Of a DNA stretch of 64,000 nucleotides, positions 1-62,417 are shown in pieces; position 1 is the first letter of the stretch, and each line of letters opens with the position of its first letter. The position numbers were made by a program, and so were the translations under genes. The DNA is from an uncultured Candidatus Saccharibacteria bacterium (lineage in GTDB: Bacteria > Patescibacteriota > Minisyncoccia > Minisyncoccales > GWA2-38-27), in assembly GCA_964447515.1 (NCBI GenBank), contig CAYUSS010000004.1, positions 532 through 64,531 of the forward strand, given 5' to 3'. The notes below the pieces were generated by a model. It worked only from the letters and a program-made list of their open reading frames with translations, did not search any database and was not told the DNA's origin.

Positions 1-302
1 TTGAAACTGTTTTCATTAAAGACGAAGTTTTATTACCTGAAAAAGTTGATTTGATTTTTTTAAGGAATGTTTATCATCATCTAAAAGTAAGAAATAGAAT
101 AGAATATTTTAGAGAGTTGAAAAAATATCTAAAGAAAAAAAATAAATTGGTAGTTGTAGAACGGGAAAAGACTAAAGTATTAAGCCATGGGACTCAAAAA
201 CAAACTATTTTAGATGAACTAGGAAGAGCGGGATATAAAATTGTTAAAGATTACGATATTTTACCAAAACAGAATTTTTTGATTTTTGAGAAAGCCGAGT
301 AG
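1..302 (+). CDS. class I SAM-dependent methyltransferase, C-terminal part (5' end outside window)
   Basis: Frame is open from base 3 to TAG 300-302. The segment VDLIFLRNVYHHL resembles the conserved D..F..N..HH motif region of Methyltransf_11/25-type enzymes. Confidence 0.45.
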   Translation, partial: ETVFIKDEVLLPEKVDLIFLRNVYHHLKVRNRIEYFRELKKYLKKKNKLVVVEREKTKVLSHGTQKQTILDELGRAGYKIVKDYDILPKQNFLIFEKAE

Positions 303-306
303 TAAA

Positions 307-449
307 AATAGGGGTCAGTTTTTACGGAAATAGGGGTCAGCTCTATTTCTTTGTTTTTAGGATATAATAGAATAATGCCAAGACCATTAAGAATTACTAC
401 TCCTAATACACATTTTCATATTCTTAATAAGAAAAAATAGAGCTGACCC
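307..449 (+). mobile_element. hairpin-flanked remnant of an IS200-like Y1 transposase (RAYT-like) gene
   Basis: A 21-codon ORF at 375-440 encodes MPRPLRITTPNTHFHILNKKK, which resembles the MPR..RI......YH(V/I).NRG N-terminus of Y1_Tnp proteins. It is enclosed by a perfect 14-bp inverted repeat, GGGTCAGCTCTATT 334-347 and AATAGAGCTGACCC 436-449. The direct repeat AAATAGGGGTCAG occurs at 307-318 and 328-340. Confidence 0.3.
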
Positions 450-491
450 AATTTTCCATTCTCAAAAAGCCCTGATTTTCCCTTTAAAATT

Positions 492-2932: not shown

Positions 2933-3144
2933 CGGTGGATTGAACAAATTACTGCTATGGCGCAACAGGAATGCACATCACCCATTTATGGGGGCTAATT
3001 CAAGACTTCTATGAACTCTCTTAATCTCTGCTACTTTCTCTTTCATCATCGCCATATACTCCCTATTCTCCAGAACTAAGATGAGTTTTTTAAAAATTGT
3101 TGAACGGGGGAGCCAATTTCATAATGTCATTAGAGAATTCAGGT

Positions 3145-3175
3145 AATCGCCTTTTGGGCGGTTTTTTGGTAGAAT
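3145..3175 (+). promoter_or_regulatory. terminator hairpin fused to extended -10 (TGGTAGAAT)
   Basis: AATCGCC-TTTT-GGGCGG hairpin and T-run, then TGGTAGAAT ending at 3175. Same module as 658-693, 50167-50198 and 62231-62261. Confidence 0.45.
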
Positions 3176-3224
3176 AAATTAGGAATTAAAGGTCGAAGAA
3201 CTAAAAATTAAATAATGTAAATTT

Positions 3225-3777: not shown

Positions 3778-3961
3778 GTGTCTCATTTGTCTCATTTTAG
3801 CTTAAAAACCCTGAAAAATGAGACACGGCCCTTATTCACTTTAATACTATCTTTTCTATCATATTCTGGCCTTATTTTGCTTGCTTCAAAGCGACCCGTC
3901 CCCGTCAGAAGGAGCATCGGGTTTCCCTCTCAAAAGATGGTTCTGAACCCGAGTGGGGAGC
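3778..3961 (+). repeat. intergenic repeat family 'GTGTCTCATTT hairpin ... GGTTCTGAACCCG..GGGGAGC', copy 2
   Basis: Same ends as 2393-2528. The track ORF 3778..4017 only translates this repeat. Confidence 0.75.
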
Positions 3962-3971
3962 TTCGAAAATC

Positions 3972-5319: not shown

Positions 5320-6038
5320 CTTATTGCGTTGATAAACACTTCTTCGATATTTTTAGCATTATATTTGTCTTTTAATCCTTGAGGGGTGCCGGTTTCTAAT
5401 ATTAGCCCTTTATCTATCAAAGTAATTCTGTCGCATAAGAATTCCACTTCCAGCATATTATGAGAGGACAACAAAACCGTTGTTCCTTTTTTAACAAAGT
5501 CCTTTATTATTCCTCTTATTTCCTGGGAAATTATCACATCCAACCCCGATGTTGGTTCATCTAAAATAGCCAACTTAGGATTTATCATCAATGCCCTGGC
5601 GAGCAACAACCTTCTGCTCATTCCTTTGCTATAAGTACTTACTTTACCTTTTAGGCGTTTTCCAAGTTTAGCCAATTCTATTCCTCTCTCCATTATCTCT
5701 CTTTTTTCTTCATTGTCCTTTGAATAAAAACTAGCCATAAATTCCAAATAAGCTTTCCCTGACAGATTTTTATAAGCACCAGCTTCTTCCGGCAAATAAC
5801 TAATTCTCTCTCTAACTTTGTCTGCTTTTTTAATTACATCATAGCCGAAGACCTTCACTTCTCCAGAAGTAATTTGCAGCAGTGTTGAAATAATTCGTAA
5901 AGCAGTAGTTTTTCCGGCAGCATTCGGGCCAATCAAACCAAAAATCTCTCCCTGATTTACTTCAAAAGAAATACCTTTCAGAGCCCTAAAATTCCCATAG
6001 TCTTTTATTAAATCTTTAACTTCTGTTGCTTTATTCAT
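5316..6038 (-). CDS. ABC transporter ATP-binding protein
   Basis: Walker A GPNAAGKTT, signature YSKGMSRRL, Walker B LAILDEP. Start chosen at MNKATEVKDL (6038); the track start at 6080 is an alternative. Confidence 0.85.
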   Translation of the reverse strand: MNKATEVKDLIKDYGNFRALKGISFEVNQGEIFGLIGPNAAGKTTALRIISTLLQITSGEVKVFGYDVIKKADKVRERISYLPEEAGAYKNLSGKAYLEFMASFYSKDNEEKREIMERGIELAKLGKRLKGKVSTYSKGMSRRLLLARALMINPKLAILDEPTSGLDVIISQEIRGIIKDFVKKGTTVLLSSHNMLEVEFLCDRITLIDKGLILETGTPQGLKDKYNAKNIEEVFINAIR

Positions 6039-6357: not shown

Positions 6358-6366
6358 TAAAACCAG

Positions 6367-6471
6367 GTTCTAACATCGTTCAACCCCAGGCACCCTAATC
6401 CTGAAAATCTCCAATTCTTCCCTTATTTTTCTCCAATCAATGGTTCTGAATGCGTTCTGTATGGGGAGCAT
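6367..6471 (+). repeat. GGTTCTAAC...GGGGAGC junction repeat (copy G); contains candidate 33-aa ORF on the minus strand (6370..6471)
   Basis: GGTTCTAACATCGTTC 6367-6382 and GGTTCTGAATGCGTTC..GGGGAGC 6442-6469. The minus strand reads MLPIQNAFRTIDWRKIREELEIFRIRVPGVERC, with AAGGA 11 nt upstream of its ATG. Confidence 0.6.
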
Positions 6472-6889: not shown

Positions 6890-6897
6890 ATAAAACA

Positions 6898-7001
6898 GGG
6901 TTCTATCACTGTCCATCCTTTGTTAAATTGGGCATCCGAATTTCTAACTCTTTCCTAATTTCTATCCAATCCAAAGTTCTAAACATGTCCAATAGGGGGA
7001 G
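6898..7001 (+). repeat. GGTTCTAAC...GGGGAGC junction repeat (copy H, degenerate)
   Basis: GGGTTCTATCACTGTCC 6898-6914 and AGTTCTAAACATGTCC..GGGGGAG 6976-7001. The internal 50 nt align with copies G and I. Confidence 0.55.
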
Positions 7002-7055
7002 TTAGCTTCAGAAAATCGCTAAGAAGTCGGTTTTTTGATAGAATTAAATAGAATT

Positions 7056-7694
7056 ATGAAAATATCAAAAGCAGAATTTGCTAAAGGTGTTATCGGGGAC
7101 GATTACGGTTTGGAAGGCAATTTACCGCACATCGCTTTTTTTGGCCGCTCCAATGCAGGGAAATCAAGCGTGATTAACTCTTTAGTCGGGAAAAAAGACC
7201 TTGTAAAAACAAGCAAGATGCCGGGGAAAACACGTGAAGCGAATTTTTTCCGTATCAATGATTCTTTCTATTTTGCGGATTTTCCCGGATATGGATATGC
7301 CAAGCATTCAATATTGGAGCGCAACAAAATGATCAAAAGGATTTTTTGGTATGTGGAGTTTTCCAATGTGAGGCCCAAAGCAGTTTTCTTAATTATTGAC
7401 GCTGATGTTGGTTTGACTGTCCTTGATCGGGATATGATAAAAATTCTCAAGACAAATAAACATCAAATTGTCATTATTGCAAACAAAATTGATAAATTAA
7501 CTAAAGGCGCCGCGGGAAAACAGCTTTCCTCAATCCAAAAAGAAGCGCGAGATATACCTGTTTTGAGATATTCGGCTAAAACAAACGAAGGAAAAGACGA
7601 ATTAACTAAAAAAATTGCGAGTTTTGTACAAAAAAAGCCCGACCGAGACGGGTTGTGCCCGAGAGTCAAAATTCTGCGTCCGGATTTTCACTGA
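7056..7694 (+). CDS. engB: ribosome-biogenesis GTPase YihA/EngB
   Basis: G1 GRSNAGKSS, G3 DFPGYG, G4 NKIDK. Start taken at ATG 7056, because the track TTG 7035 lies in the promoter module. The C-terminal 20 aa are GC-rich repeat-like sequence. Confidence 0.85.
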   Translation: MKISKAEFAKGVIGDDYGLEGNLPHIAFFGRSNAGKSSVINSLVGKKDLVKTSKMPGKTREANFFRINDSFYFADFPGYGYAKHSILERNKMIKRIFWYVEFSNVRPKAVFLIIDADVGLTVLDRDMIKILKTNKHQIVIIANKIDKLTKGAAGKQLSSIQKEARDIPVLRYSAKTNEGKDELTKKIASFVQKKPDRDGLCPRVKILRPDFH

Positions 7695-7819
7695 AATACG
7701 TTCGGATTTTATCCAGGGTGCGGAGCAAATTTTTTGTTTAAAAAGCTAAGGTGTTATTGCTTTTTATTTGTTATAAGTATATACTCTAATTAGCTAAAAC
7801 TATAATTAAAATTAGAAAT

Positions 7820-24697: not shown

Positions 24698-26716
24698 ATG
24701 ATGATGAGAACAAAAATTTTCTTAATTTCTTTTATTTTAAGTTTAGCTTTCTGGTGGGGGATAAATAGTTTGGTAGAGAATTTAGAAGATTTTTTATTTT
24801 GGCAGGAAATATCTAAACAGCCGGGAATATTTACTGCCAAGGCAAGTCAACAAATTCCTAGAAACGAAGTAGAGAGATTAAGGTTTGAAAGACTACAAAC
24901 CGAATTAAAAAATTTAAAAATTGAGGCCAAAGCTGCAATTTCGGTTTTGATAAATGGTAATGGAGAGGAAAGAATTCTTTTTGGAAAAAATACTGACCAG
25001 AGATTATCAATTGCTAGTTTGACCAAATTAATGACCGCCCTTATTGTTCTGGAAAATTATGACCTTTCAAGAGAAATTACGATTTCTAAAGAAGCTATTA
25101 ACCAGCCGGGGGATTTTGGGAAATTAGAAGCAGGAAAGAATTTTCCGGTGAGATATTTACTTTATCCCTTATTAATAGAATCAAGCAATGATGCTGCTTT
25201 CTCTTTAGCCAATGATTACGAAGAGATGACAGAAGAAAAATTTGTTGAGTTGATGAATTTGGAAGCCCAAAAAATGAATCTGGAGAATACTTTTTTTGTT
25301 AATTCTACCGGTATTGACCCCAAGGAACCGGAAACCGAAATAAACAATGAGACGTTTAACGTCTCATGTGAGGGAAATTATTCAACTGCTGCTGATTTGG
25401 TTAAATTTACTAAAGAATTATTTAAAAAACCCTTAATTTGGGAAATTCTTTCTACCCCGGAATTTAATCTTTATGGACCAAAACTTATTAATACTAATGA
25501 GCTTTTAGAAGAATCTCTCGGTTGGTCGAACAGAATTATTGGAGGGAAAACCGGCGAAACCCCTCAAGCTAATGGTTGTTTTCTTTTAGTTCTTAAAACC
25601 CCTCAATCAGATTACTTAATAAATATAGTTTTGGGTTCAAACGACCGCTTTGGAGAAATGCGAAAATTATTAAATTGGCTGGAGAAAAAAGAAGAAGTAA
25701 ACCCCGTTAGAGATTCCGAGAGTAGAGAAGAAGCACAGAAAAAGGGTATCTCTAACGGGGCAAAAACTTTTGACCCGGCTTTATTGGAGTGGGAAGAGAT
25801 AACCTCTAATGCTCCCTGGTCTCCAAGAGACTCCCATGGTACTGTAGTTTTTCAAAATAAAATTTGGTTAATGGGAGGATTAAATGGAAATGGGTTTCAA
25901 GATAAAAATGGCAATGTTCCTTATTGGAGAGTACCTCATTATAGTGATGTTTGGTCTTCAAAAGACGGAAGAAATTGGCAGCTTGTTACTAAAAATGCTC
26001 CCTGGGGTAAAAAAAGGTCAATGCAAGCCATAGTTTTTAAAAATAAAATCTGGTTAATTGGGGGCTGGGGACCGGAAATTGGATATTCAAATGATATCTG
26101 GGTTACAGAAAATGGAATTGATTGGGAAAAGATAGAACCAAAAGGAGAATTACCGGCAGTGGAAGGAGACCAGTTAGTTGTTTTTGAAGACAAATTATGG
26201 TTAATTGGCGGAGTAAGATACGACGAAAGAAAGGAAAAAAATTATGTTTGGGTTTCTGAAGACGGCATTAATTGGACTGAAGCTACTGAAAGAGCGCCTT
26301 GGTCGCCGAGATGGGATCATACGGTAACCGTATTTAAAAATAAATTGTGGCTTATTGGCGGTATGAATTTAGAGGGAGAAATTTACCAGGATGTCTGGAG
26401 TTCTCAAGATGGGAAAAATTGGTTATTAGTTACCGATAATCCGCCTTGGCGGGGGAGACAAGGGCATGGCTCGGTAGTTTTTCAAAATAAAATTTGGATT
26501 ATTGGAAGACTTAATGGCAAAAGTACTGGTGGAGATAATGATGTTTGGTATTCAGAAGATGGTTATACTTGGGGAAAAACCCAAAAAAATGCTCCCTGGT
26601 TAGGCAGGGAAGATATTGGGGTTTTGGTCTTTAAAGATAAGATATGGGCATTAGGAGGAATGGATGGTAACTCGGAATGGAAAAATGATATTTGGTTTTC
26701 AATTTTCTCTCCTTAA
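24698..26716 (+). CDS. D-alanyl-D-alanine carboxypeptidase (S11) fused to a C-terminal Kelch-type beta-propeller
   Basis: SxxK SLTKLMT, SSND, and a KTG-like motif (GGKTGET). C-terminal half has about 6 repeats of W(S/G)PR..H..VVF.NK(I/L)WL(I/M)GG. The linker at 25701-25760 is a palindromic element. Confidence 0.75.
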   Translation: MMMRTKIFLISFILSLAFWWGINSLVENLEDFLFWQEISKQPGIFTAKASQQIPRNEVERLRFERLQTELKNLKIEAKAAISVLINGNGEERILFGKNTDQRLSIASLTKLMTALIVLENYDLSREITISKEAINQPGDFGKLEAGKNFPVRYLLYPLLIESSNDAAFSLANDYEEMTEEKFVELMNLEAQKMNLENTFFVNSTGIDPKEPETEINNETFNVSCEGNYSTAADLVKFTKELFKKPLIWEILSTPEFNLYGPKLINTNELLEESLGWSNRIIGGKTGETPQANGCFLLVLKTPQSDYLINIVLGSNDRFGEMRKLLNWLEKKEEVNPVRDSESREEAQKKGISNGAKTFDPALLEWEEITSNAPWSPRDSHGTVVFQNKIWLMGGLNGNGFQDKNGNVPYWRVPHYSDVWSSKDGRNWQLVTKNAPWGKKRSMQAIVFKNKIWLIGGWGPEIGYSNDIWVTENGIDWEKIEPKGELPAVEGDQLVVFEDKLWLIGGVRYDERKEKNYVWVSEDGINWTEATERAPWSPRWDHTVTVFKNKLWLIGGMNLEGEIYQDVWSSQDGKNWLLVTDNPPWRGRQGHGSVVFQNKIWIIGRLNGKSTGGDNDVWYSEDGYTWGKTQKNAPWLGREDIGVLVFKDKIWALGGMDGNSEWKNDIWFSIFSP

Positions 26717-50161: not shown

Positions 50162-50166
50162 CAAAA

Positions 50167-50198
50167 GAATCGCCAAAACGGCGATTTTTTGGTAGAAT
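50167..50198 (+). promoter_or_regulatory. terminator hairpin fused to extended -10 (TGGTAGAAT), 6 nt before the maf ATG
   Basis: GAATCGCC-AAAAC-GGCGATT plus a T-run, TGGTAGAAT at 50190-50198, ATG at 50205. Confidence 0.55.
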
Positions 50199-50204
50199 GA
50201 ATAT

Positions 50205-58395: not shown

Positions 58396-60045
58396 ATGGG
58401 ATTATTTAAGAAAATTAAACATTTCCTTAAAAAAAGAAGACGTTTGGTGATGGGTTTTTTTATAGCGGTATCTGTTGTTTGTTTATTCGTATATTTCGCA
58501 GCCACTCCTAACATTCAATTTGAAGTTTTAACTCCCAAACACCTAATAAGTTCTGTCTATAAGGTATACGGGAATCCCGATATTGGTTTTTGGTGCGGTA
58601 AAACCGTAATAACAAATACAGGGGATGGCCCGGCATATGATTTAAAAGTATCTTATAAAGTTGAAGGATATACCGACTGGAATGAATCTGTGACTTATCC
58701 AATATTATTGTCCGGCAGTACTGTTGTAGATTTATATTATCCAATATTGCCAAAAGAAATAACAGATTTAAAAACTCCTACTCCTTCCAATATTAAAATT
58801 AAAATTACTTATGCCGAATCGCCCGGGGGCTCGCAGAAAGAAATTACTCAAAATAAATCTATAATGATTCTTGGAAGCCGCGATTTTGTATTTAGCAGTA
58901 TCCTTCCGGAAGAGAGTACCGGAAGTTTTCTTGATAATTTCAGTAATTATCCTCTTTTAGCGGCTCGGGTTACTCCGGCCGATCCGGTTCTTATGAGTTT
59001 TGCCGATATGGGGAATAAACTTGCCGGCGGTCCGGGGGCAAGCCTTTCAGATGACGAAGCTATAAGATCCCTTTCGGGAATATGGCGGGTAGCGGTAAAT
59101 AACAGAATACAATACAAAACAGAACCTTTGGCGTTTTGGACTGGAGAATTTGCTCAATTTATAAAATATCCCAGAGACGTAATAAAAGACAAAGCAGGCA
59201 CTTGTATTGATACGGCGTTATTTTTTGCTTCCGCTGCCGCATCTCAGGGCTTAAAACCTTTTATAATTCTTATGCCGGGACACGCTTTTACTGTCATTCA
59301 ACTGCCCAGCGGAACAAACATAGCTGTAGAAACAACTGCTTTGAATGACAGGGCATCCTTTGGGCAAGCAGTAGATCTTGGAAGTAGAGTTTATAATGAC
59401 GCAATACAGGGACCTTATATTATTGTAGATGTTATAACCCTCCAATCATTAGGAATAACTCCTCCGGAGCTTGAAGAGTTGCCTTCTGACGCTCTTGAAA
59501 AATGGGGAATCAGTATGGCAGGAAGCGGATCTTCAGCGCAACCTCAACCCCAACCTCAACCTCAGCCCCAACCTCAACCCGAACCTCAACCTCAACCCGG
59601 ACCCCAGCCCCAACCCGGAGAAGAAGATTATGTTAACTATGCCAATCCTTATTATCCGGAATGGAATATTTCTTATCCAAATAGTTGGTCAATTCTCCAG
59701 TGGGTGAATGAGATTGATTTATATTCTCCTTCCAAGCAAGTGAGATTTGTTATAGCTTGGGGTTATGGAATGAGCGCCGACCAAGCCAGAAGCACTATGG
59801 AAAATTTTGTGCTGAAGCCGATGGGTGTCCAGACAACAAACGAAAACCCGGATAATGTTTGCGGCATTTCAGCTACTGAAGTGGAATATCAAGGCACGAC
59901 TAACGGTGTAACTTATCTTTTTTACGCTAGATATTTTCAGGCAAAAAATCACGGATTTGCTATTATATATAATTTTCCCAACGACGCGAACTCTAAAAGT
60001 AATTCAGAAACTTGTGAAACCGTTTTGAGAAATTTTGCTCTATAA
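58396..60045 (+). CDS. membrane-anchored transglutaminase-like protein with a (PQ)n linker
   Basis: TM anchor. Cys-His core GTCIDTALFFASAA...LMPGHAFTV. Low-complexity tract QPQPQPQPQPQPQPEPQPQPGPQPQPG encoded at 59536-59615. Confidence 0.55.
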   Translation: MGLFKKIKHFLKKRRRLVMGFFIAVSVVCLFVYFAATPNIQFEVLTPKHLISSVYKVYGNPDIGFWCGKTVITNTGDGPAYDLKVSYKVEGYTDWNESVTYPILLSGSTVVDLYYPILPKEITDLKTPTPSNIKIKITYAESPGGSQKEITQNKSIMILGSRDFVFSSILPEESTGSFLDNFSNYPLLAARVTPADPVLMSFADMGNKLAGGPGASLSDDEAIRSLSGIWRVAVNNRIQYKTEPLAFWTGEFAQFIKYPRDVIKDKAGTCIDTALFFASAAASQGLKPFIILMPGHAFTVIQLPSGTNIAVETTALNDRASFGQAVDLGSRVYNDAIQGPYIIVDVITLQSLGITPPELEELPSDALEKWGISMAGSGSSAQPQPQPQPQPQPQPEPQPQPGPQPQPGEEDYVNYANPYYPEWNISYPNSWSILQWVNEIDLYSPSKQVRFVIAWGYGMSADQARSTMENFVLKPMGVQTTNENPDNVCGISATEVEYQGTTNGVTYLFYARYFQAKNHGFAIIYNFPNDANSKSNSETCETVLRNFAL

Positions 60046-61899: not shown

Positions 61900-62230
61900 A
61901 ATCTGAGTCTTTTTTATATTGACAATATGTTTTAATTTGCTAAAATTAAACATAGAAGATAAATAATTATGCAAATATCTTTTAGTATTCAATCCGTTGT
62001 TTTAGTTCTCGTCAGCCTTCTTGAAAGGATTGGAAAAAGGTGTCAGGAACCTTTTTTAGTGGAAAAAATGGTGTCAGGTCTGGTTTTAAGAAAATAGTGA
62101 ATAGCAGGGTAGGGTGAATTTGATATAATGATTTTAAGCTTGTGGGACTTAAGTTTGGGATGTAAATATACTCATCTGATTACCGGATAATAGTTCTAAC
62201 GTTGTCCACGATGCGGAGCCGGGCTCAAAA

Positions 62231-62261
62231 AATCGCCAAGGGGGCGATTTTTTGGTAGAAT
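62231..62261 (+). promoter_or_regulatory. terminator hairpin fused to extended -10 (TGGTAGAAT)
   Basis: AATCGCC-AAGGG-GGCGATT and a T-run, then TGGTAGAAT, 7 nt before ATG 62269. Confidence 0.5.
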
Positions 62262-62268
62262 GGAATAT

Positions 62269-62355
62269 ATGAATATTGAAGTGGAGATAAAAGTTAAAAT
62301 AGATAGTCTTGGTCAGAAAAAGGGGTCAGGAACCTTTTTTGCAATAAGAAAATAG
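62269..62355 (+). pseudogene. truncated CYTH-domain gene start (28 codons)
   Basis: MNIEVEIKVKIDSL resembles the E.E.K beta-1 strand start of CYTH/CyaB-like proteins. The ORF runs into the hairpin AAAAAGGGGTCAGGAACCTTTTTT and stops. Confidence 0.35.
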
Positions 62356-62417
62356 TGTCAACTCTGAATTTTTAACAGGAAACAAAAAGTCGAAAAATTA
62401 ATTGAAAAATAAAATTT

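Follow-up and report, generated by a model that had tools for sequence, protein, structure and literature searches.

Positions 326-457 of the 64,000-nt stretch of contig CAYUSS010000004.1 analysed here (called the window; all coordinates are positions within it) very probably (about 0.92) are a non-autonomous, internally deleted Y1 (HUH) transposable element bounded by terminal inverted repeats (TIRs), a 'TIRtron' encoding a TIRYT enzyme, in a Patescibacteria (Parcubacteria-like) genome. The short open reading frame (ORF) in its centre is, judging from alignment with intact relatives, made up of codons 1-18 of the transposase gene fused by an internal deletion to its last three codons (KKK) and native stop codon. 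The window copy is a relic, an ordinary decayed transposon and not an enzyme; an odd hairpin-enclosed mini-ORF is thus explained as a dead transposon, and GGKGTCAG hairpins near 62 kb are tied to the same element family. The feature itself is modest, and its family context in Patescibacteria is more interesting: intact copies, graded deletions and one amplified mini-element among the related loci show TIRYT elements with unusual clarity.

The ORF runs from an ATG at 375 to a TAG at 438-440 and encodes MPRPLRITTPNTHFHILNKKK (21 codons). It had been described earlier, from the letters of the window (the original prediction), as a remnant of a Y1 transposase N-terminus enclosed by a perfect inverted repeat, and this description of the locus proved accurate in each detail: the 14-bp arms (GGGTCAGCTCTATT) occupy 334-347 and 436-449, the stop codon is inside the right arm, and the promoter hexamer TATAAT (363-368) is followed by the ATG exactly 6 nt further on. 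The inverted repeat is longer than first noted, with 40-nt arms (326-365 and 418-457) that are 78% complementary. RNA folding of 300-470 yields -43.4 kcal/mol (z = -5.75 versus shuffled sequence), and DNA folding yields tandem hairpins at 302-325 and 327-349 (z = -5.4 for 300-360), each with AGGGGTCAG in or at the loop. The left TIR is itself a hairpin (GAAATAG/CTATTTC) and carries GGGGTCAG, while the right TIR is slightly degenerate, its GGGG run now being TGGG (TGGGTCAG). Within the window, the full 18-nt repeat arm is found at this locus only.

The window copy could be aligned to complete elements on related contigs. Positions 326-429 (left TIR, promoter and codons 1-18) are 90% identical on the DNA level to the intact element of contig L071 (93 of 103 columns), and 431-456 match its 3' end in 24 of 25 positions. 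With P0002, the 233-aa transposase of this element, as tblastn query, the only match in the window is at 375-431 (16 of 19 residues identical). A hidden Markov model (HMM) of the first 22 residues of 117 family members assigns 37.1 bits (E = 2e-10) to the window peptide; the runner-up among 2,494 six-frame window segments reaches 6.9 bits. These data bear out the predicted relationship to the Y1 N-terminus. It had also been stated that the similarity to the N-terminus is followed simply by a stop, which is correct for codons 1-18 and misses the fusion to the gene end. TIR cores are 761 bp apart in intact copies and 118 bp apart in the window. About 640 bp are missing compared with intact elements, roughly codons 19-229. 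What is retained is the TIR at either end, the promoter with codons 1-18, and the final three codons with their native stop. The deletion removed the catalytic tyrosine (YNELNP) along with the HUH motif (NHTH), so that the 21-aa product cannot catalyse anything. The 118-bp size class was encountered in the window only, among about 80 loci, and thus there is no sign of movement after the deletion.

The family assignment of the peptide was settled by a DNA-pattern scan for the repeat arm. The 22-nt pattern WWWKGGGTCAGCTCTATTTYTT, which covers both arms, was compared with public metagenome and genome contigs and gave 52 metagenome loci and 15 genome loci, most of the assignable ones being Patescibacteria-like. 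The chance expectation is about two loci per collection, a rough estimate assuming uniform base composition. On L038 and L037, the identical arm and promoter (tatgatataat) are followed by ATG CCA AGA CCA TTA AGA ATT ACT..., and the ORF on L038 runs on as MPRPLRITTPNILFHILNRGNNRQLIFKDERDYIYF...HFCLMPNHTHFMIEP...GHVWQGRYKSS...LYNELNPVRAG.... Among the recovered contigs are some in which arm and promoter are followed by a complete PF01797 gene of 232-233 aa (protein start MPRPLRITTPNILFHILNRGNNRQ...), with an inverted copy of the arm that adjoins or overlaps the stop codon of this gene. Matches in Bacillus (L048, L056, L069), in Peribacillus-like sequences (L028, L041, L061) and in Phaeodactylibacter (L047, L057, L062) were set aside. 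The hairpins concerned (AAAAATAAGAGCTGAC...GTCAGCTCTATTTTT) are terminator-like and belong to two orthologous loci of unrelated phyla; we judged them to be due to chance or convergence, at about the expected number.

The intact element is about 770 bp long and consists of a 24-bp TIR (GAAAAT[A/G]GGGGTCAGCTCTATTTT), the TATAAT promoter, the Y1_Tnp gene for 232-233 aa, and the right TIR at or over the stop codon. Four independent intact elements (L071, L073, L080, L053) follow this one plan, with perfect TIRs of 22-24 bp. L071 and L038 contain the left TIR, the promoter, the complete ORF for P0002 and a right TIR adjoining the stop. In L071, the left TIR (GAAAATGGGGTCAGCTCTATTTTT) is located 23 nt upstream of the ATG and a perfect inverted copy directly follows the stop (...GGG AGA CCA AAG AAA AAA TAA, then AAAAATAGAGCTGACCCCATTTTC). 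In L073 (protein P0004, TIR AAAATGGTGTCAACTCTGAATTTT), the ORF end is inside the right TIR; in L080 (P0076, Candidatus Nealsonbacteria, TIR AAAATGGGGTCAACTCTATTTT) and in L053, the stop codon TAG is. Because intact L073, L080 and L053 end inside the right TIR, the stop codon in the right arm of the window copy is a native feature of the family. The original prediction had proposed that the enclosing repeats are those of a mobilising Y1 enzyme. They do bound intact Y1 elements; as to type, they are TIRYT-type TIRs (GGGGWSAS) and not GTAG-tagged repetitive extragenic palindromes (REPs).

P0002 matches Pfam family Y1_Tnp (PF01797) with E = 6e-16, and including 24 other aligned members that also match, E-values reach down to 6e-17. 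A homology search yielded 1,600 relatives at E <= 1e-10. Among the matches listed, nearly all have 230-240 aa and PF01797, and the named ones are from Candidatus Nealsonbacteria or the 'Patescibacteria group'. In intact relatives, N59-H60-x-H62 and Y120 in Y-x-E-L-N-P, both deleted from the window copy, are invariant or nearly so. The family motifs are NH[T/I/L/V]H (HuH), WQ (W motif) and Y[VN]ELNP at a length of 232 aa. A search of 25 members for a Pfam helix-turn-helix (HTH) domain (Bac_DnaA_C, HTH_23, HTH_28) gave no match at E <= 1. The AlphaFold model has three C-terminal helices (171-216) of low confidence (predicted local distance difference test, pLDDT, ~60). Nearly all family proteins (P0002-P0121) end with RGRP(R/K)K, an AT-hook-like sequence encoded right at the right TIR, and two members have weak PF02178 matches.

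PF01797 carries the name 'Transposase IS200 like', and the predicted fold of P0002 shows weak matches to the TnpA proteins of IS608, ISDra2 and IS200. Even so, we give next to no credence to an origin of the remnant from an ordinary IS200/IS605 insertion sequence (IS). P0002 obtains 16.8 bits with the NCBIfam IS200 model, for which the cut-off is 55, and there is no tnpB gene near the intact relatives. In the classification of Quentin et al. (2018; PMC6006769), subclass 1.1 proteins have about 150 aa and the pattern Y---Q, and the class 2 proteins, which are like REP-associated tyrosine transposases (RAYTs), have Y---NP. The family is not of the IS200/IS605 type, since it has Y---NP instead of Y---Q and 232 instead of about 150 aa, and since its elements have perfect TIRs, which IS200/IS605 elements lack.

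A canonical REP/RAYT system, in which a single-copy gene is accompanied by tens to hundreds of cognate REPINs per genome, was also considered. The hairpins would then be GTAG-type REP hairpins (REPINs), and the remnant would be a lost, domesticated single-copy RAYT. Several results point in this direction: the best NCBIfam model for P0002 is REP_Tyr_transpos (NF047646), its closest PDB match both by sequence and by predicted fold (AlphaFold model) is 4ER8, the E. coli TnpA-REP, and the Y---NP pattern is that of class 2 RAYT-like proteins (PMC6006769). Further, each TIR is a small palindrome, a REP-like family of 21-nt palindromes with the same core exists, and P0076 was present at one fixed locus in all contigs read. 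We nevertheless regard this explanation as improbable. With 69.7 bits, P0002 does not reach the NCBIfam equivalog cut-off of 80 bits, and neither GTAG nor GTGG is present at the hairpin foot in any TIR subtype; for these two reasons the element is not a canonical REPtron. In addition, the repeats act as 24-bp TIRs whose distance from the gene is fixed, and it is by this feature that TIRtrons were set apart from REPtrons (PMC3733652). Non-autonomous inverted doublets do form long hairpins as in the REPINs of Pseudomonas, and the palindromic units are presumably recognised by a Y1 enzyme in both cases. However, the repeats are here the termini of a gene-containing element, and only a handful of copies is present in the 64 kb.

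The TIR-bounded elements themselves appear to match the published TIRYT/TIRtron class, that is, RAYT group 1 or TnpA-Y1 subclass 2.1, with a partial subclass fit that is uncertain with respect to the HuH motif and the HTH. Di Nocera, De Gregorio and Rocco (2013; PMC3733652) reported Y1 genes that have TIRs and not REPs on their flanks, and introduced the terms TIRtron for the element and TIRYT for the enzyme. GGGGWSAS is common to many TIRs of that study, some overlap gene ends, and some constitute moderately abundant repeat families which occur as singles, dimers or clusters. As in TIRtrons, we find a Y1 HUH gene with long TIRs at fixed short distances and a 3' TIR which adjoins or overlaps the gene end; the left TIR core of the window copy fits GGGGWSAS, and TIR copies elsewhere on related contigs occur as singles, dimers or clusters. 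Unlike these, our elements reside in Patescibacteria, which are absent from the sample of PMC3733652, and the TIRs of sister subtypes (GGGGTCAA in L080, GGTGTCAA in L073) depart from GGGGWSAS. Also documented here are a graded series of internal deletions and an amplified mini-element which keeps the gene promoter.

According to Quentin et al. (PMC6006769), most TIRYTs belong to TnpA-Y1 subclass 2.1, which is group 1 of Bertels et al. (2017; PMC5581495), the most IS-like RAYT group. Subclass 2.1 has a median length of 238 aa, W[EQ], Y-x-x-L-N-P and a C-terminal HTH (Bac_DnaA_C, HTH_23 or HTH_28), its key motifs being NHVH or NH[YF]H and YIELNP or Y[IV]HLNP; flanking repeats were not found for it (PMC6006769). 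The Patescibacteria family resembles this subclass in its length of about 232 aa, in WQ and Y-x-E-L-N-P, and in having a C-terminal extension past the HUH core. It is also partly IS-like, as is RAYT group 1, with duplicates and decaying copies. It differs from the subclass, with which it was compared by published description and not by reference sequences, in having NH[T/I/L/V]H, an AT-hook-like RGRPRK C-terminus in place of a detectable HTH (E <= 1), and clear TIRs. This Y1 class is little treated in the literature which we searched, and is now seen in Patescibacteria.

Convergent TIR pairs in the retrieved loci fall into discrete classes with core-to-core sizes of 761, 401, 157, 122, 118, 93, 75-76, 63 and 56 bp. 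The 761-bp class comprises the intact copies L071, L072 and L053. In the 401-bp class (L025, L044), the gene is truncated at about residue 110, and L037 is a further decaying copy, truncated after 66 codons. The 63-bp class has 13 copies, in which the promoter is kept to just before the ATG and is followed by the right TIR; including full TIRs, this mini-element has about 77 bp. Near-identical copies occur in no fewer than nine distinct flanking contexts, and two contigs carry a pair of them, which is the signature of a copied non-autonomous derivative. L052 contains two mini-elements and a solo TIR within 12 kb. A target duplication is not evident at the mini-elements, where A/T-rich ends blur the boundaries. 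As in IS-derived miniature inverted-repeat transposable elements, both ends are kept and the interior is lost, and several deletion sizes coexist, one of them amplified. In contrast to those, the parent enzyme is of the Y1 HUH type and not DDE, and no target-site duplication is evident.

In L055, two mini-elements with 63-bp core are in direct orientation 2.1 kb apart (5488-5550, 7652-7714), and the outer flanks of this pair are joined across a single copy in L010 (2133-2195) and L066 (7070-7132). This arrangement indicates recombination between copies or a composite insertion. Partial outer TIR duplications similar to that at 304-318 of the window are also present in L011 and L022; overall they show no significant enrichment (4 of 89 TIR copies versus 1.8% in controls) and are unconvincing as a general footprint.

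By analogy with established HUH Y1 enzymes (IS608, ISDra2, TnpA-REP), the intact enzyme would bind the hairpin of each TIR on single-stranded DNA, and would cleave and rejoin it via a 5'-phosphotyrosine intermediate. DNA bounded by TIRs would thereby be moved or copied without target-site duplication, and short derivatives, which could fold into one long hairpin, would be mobilised in trans. In the window, a deletion of about 640 bp joined codon 18 to the last three codons. The resulting copy is probably inert and at most a passive substrate. With a mutated right TIR and a size class not encountered elsewhere, it could be moved, if at all, only by an enzyme acting in trans. Incidental roles may be left to the surviving hairpins, which could terminate transcription of the upstream gene, and to the promoter, now an orphan. 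More tentatively, and at slightly worse than even odds, Patescibacteria (candidate phyla radiation), though extremely streamlined, may host an active TIRYT system, in which a subclass-2.1-like Y1 enzyme mobilises the mini-elements and perhaps also the 21-nt GGTGTCAGG palindromes. If so, this would be a REPIN/RAYT-like replicator in a lineage and a Y1 subclass that both lack reported cognate repeats or activity, and the window copy would represent one decay stage of an active system. The 24-bp TIR, the ~77-bp mini-element and the enzymes P0002, P0004 and P0076 are defined material for testing transposase nature and inverted-repeat recognition.

A current function of the ORF and hairpin, for example as a leaderless micro-protein or, after exaptation of the element, as a terminator, an attenuator or another structured RNA, is very improbable. 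In favour of it, the gene start has an intact promoter and a context that is usual in this genome, the long hairpin is highly stable, the reading frame is kept across the fusion, and the sequence is identical in three independent metagenome assemblies. These three assemblies (JGI metagenome contigs L001-L003), however, are 100% identical to the window and represent the same strain, so that their identity is uninformative on constraint, and an in-frame junction is expected by chance in one-third of cases. Also, the right TIR is decaying, and among about 80 loci the 118-bp class was encountered at this one only. Rfam searches revealed no real family, only chance miRNA-precursor-like matches to the long hairpin.

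Some points weigh against the interpretation as an internally deleted TIRtron. The 21-aa peptide by itself matches no library model. Neither the 64-kb window nor the 3.2 kb preceding it contains an intact Y1 gene, so that a cognate enzyme in this genome is hypothetical. A search for intact homologs of the PF01797 type, as suggested by the original prediction, was positive in related contigs and negative in this region. HuH motif NH[TILV]H and the lack of a detected C-terminal HTH fit the published subclass 2.1 only partly. Where exactly the element ends, and that it lacks a target duplication, is deduced from A/T-rich flanks only. An orthologous empty site was not found: the sole close relative examined, L084, has no element beside its S51 relative, but it was rejected as a true empty site as its upstream neighbour gene is a different one. 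No biochemical demonstration of TIR cleavage or movement by a TIRYT is known to us.

The negative peptide searches have to be read with their limits. With the 21-aa and 29-aa peptides, no Pfam family was obtained at E <= 10; for the 21-aa remnant, the missing PF01797 match is due to the fact that only residues 11-18 overlap the model. A PDB phmmer search with the peptide gave a chance ankyrin match only. When the read-through peptide (MPRPLRITTPNTHFHILN...) was compared with 5.8 billion proteins by word index, no candidate shared three 5-residue words. This result is a false negative, as P0002, P0008 and P0079 from the same collection start with MPRPLRITTPN, and word-index negatives are not trustworthy when the query is very short or contains X. 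With a 30-aa query, exhaustive phmmer comparison against 1.84 billion representative proteins gave no significant match and one spurious eukaryotic repeat protein; an 18-aa match cannot reach significance at this database size. Downstream of the stop at 440, the Y1-like reading frame has no continuation in any frame, and neither a six-frame motif scan nor tblastn with P0002 revealed a second Y1 gene in the window.

The features of the element and of the related repeats are compiled in Table 1.

Table 1. Element parts and related GGKGTCAG-type repeats in the window.
Feature	Position	Strand	Remarks
Outer hairpin GTAAAAA / TTTTTAC	302..325	+	Loop contains TAGGGGTCAG; DNA fold 300-360 z = -5.4
Left TIR GGAAATAGGGGTCAGCTCTATTTC	326..349	+	2 mismatches to family consensus; matches left TIR of intact L071, L038, L037
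Promoter region of the element	350..374	+	TATAAT 363-368, leaderless-type start; (t)tatgatataat conserved in intact and mini elements
Codons 1-18 of former Y1 transposase gene (MPRPLRITTPNTHFHILN)	375..428	+	tblastn, HMM, DNA identity to L071
Deletion junction	429..431	+	L071 5' alignment ends at 429, 3' alignment begins at 431
Last three codons (KKK) and native stop TAG	429..440	+	P0002 ends ...GRPKKK; TAG inside right TIR in L080, L053
Right TIR GGAAAATTGGGTCAGCTCTATTTT (minus-strand reading)	434..457	-	4 mismatches to consensus; 24/25 identical to L071 3' end
21-nt palindrome AAAAAGGTGTCAGGAACCTTTTT	62034..62058	+	REP-like family, common core GGTGTCAG
Degenerate TIR-like copy AAAAATGGTGTCAGGTCTGGTTTTA	62064..62088	+	Weak assignment, six mismatches
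21-nt palindrome, second copy, AAAAAGGGGTCAGGAACCTTTTT	62316..62340	+	Sequence comparison with related contigs
Solo TIR, sister subtype, GAAAATAGTGTCAACTCTGAATTTT	62348..62372	+	1 mismatch to TIR on both sides of intact P0004 (L073-L076)

GGGTCAG occurs nine times in the window (2.5 expected) and GG[GT]GTCAG eight times (1.2 expected); the intergenic copies cluster at 300-450 and at 60.9-62.3 kb. The hairpins near 62 kb, which the original prediction had placed together with those of the ORF, exist (GGTGTCAGG at 62039 and 62070, GGGGTCAGG at 62322), but they are of distinct related subtypes and not of the subtype at 326-457. The L073-L076 contigs, to which the solo TIR is related, are from the same Joint Genome Institute (JGI) sample series as the window's own contigs. 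The degenerate copy at 62064-62088 has a weak resemblance to one end, GGTG[CT]CAGGTCTATTTT, of the derivatives of 157 bp. Copies of the 21-nt palindrome (AAAAGGTGTCAGGAACCTTTT) are abundant on related contigs, singly or as inverted doublets (four each in L023 and L066, three in L055, also in L049, L044 and L010), which is REP-like behaviour. The stems of the subtypes differ with pairing kept (AAAATAG/CTATTTT versus AAAAGG/CCTTTT) and the loop keeps G[G/T]GTCAG, the types being too few for strong covariation. In the 64 kb examined, the TIR-type content amounts to one element and one or two solo TIRs of sister subtypes. A RAYT-type system had been proposed for the window's repeats in general; only the GGKGTCAG-type repeats are linked to the Y1 system, and the other repeat families of the window are not. 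A stretch of about 150 nt (tagtgaatagcagggtagggtgaattt...) at 62064-62215 is 70% conserved in the unrelated contig L039 (799-956), and is directly downstream of a TIR-type motif in both.

The element is located between a methyltransferase-like gene (stop 300-302; weak Pfam matches; full ORF in L001) and a Peptidase_S51 gene (695-1348). The outer hairpin at 302-325 starts at the stop codon of the former, and part of the left TIR is repeated within it as an outer copy (AAAAATAGGGGTCAG, 304-318); a direct repeat, AAATAGGGGTCAG, is found at 306-318 and 328-340. The G+C content of the window is 34.5%, and its DnaK is 77-83% identical to DnaK proteins of Patescibacteria, Parcubacteria, Nealsonbacteria and Minisyncoccales. 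Most genes of the window have no Shine-Dalgarno sequence and a -10-like hexamer (TATAAT, TAGAAT, TAAAAT) 6-8 nt before the ATG, which suggests that leaderless mRNAs are widespread in this organism.

Several other repeats were observed. A repeat of about 180 nt (511-690, 1421-1670; 96% identical over 110 nt) precedes the paralogous Peptidase_S51 genes at 695-1348 and 1473-2330. Within it are a hairpin of 16-17 bp (516-552, 1426-1462) and strings that resemble a T-loop (GGTTCGA/TTCGAATCC); it had no Rfam or tRNA/tmRNA match. A module AATCGCC-loop-GGCGATTTTTTGGTAGAAT, in which a terminator-like hairpin is combined with a -10 box shortly before the start of a gene, is found at 654-693, 1632-1671, 3141-3180, 7010-7049, 50164-50203 and 62227-62266, and in the relative L084 at 2367-2412. 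The intergenic sequences 2393-2529 and 3778-3962 are 83-90% identical (families D8, D13) and may be a duplicated non-coding element. Tandem repeats within ORFs consist of units of about 150 nt (25835-26670, in ORF 24698-26716) and of 12/18-nt units CAACCTCAACCC (59527-59610, in ORF 58396-60045). The intergenic repeat (A)GGTTCTAACATCGTCCA(CGATG) occurs at 1333-1357, 2863-2887, 6358-6382, 6891-6915 and about 62195-62215, and also beside TIRs in L038, L039 and L052.

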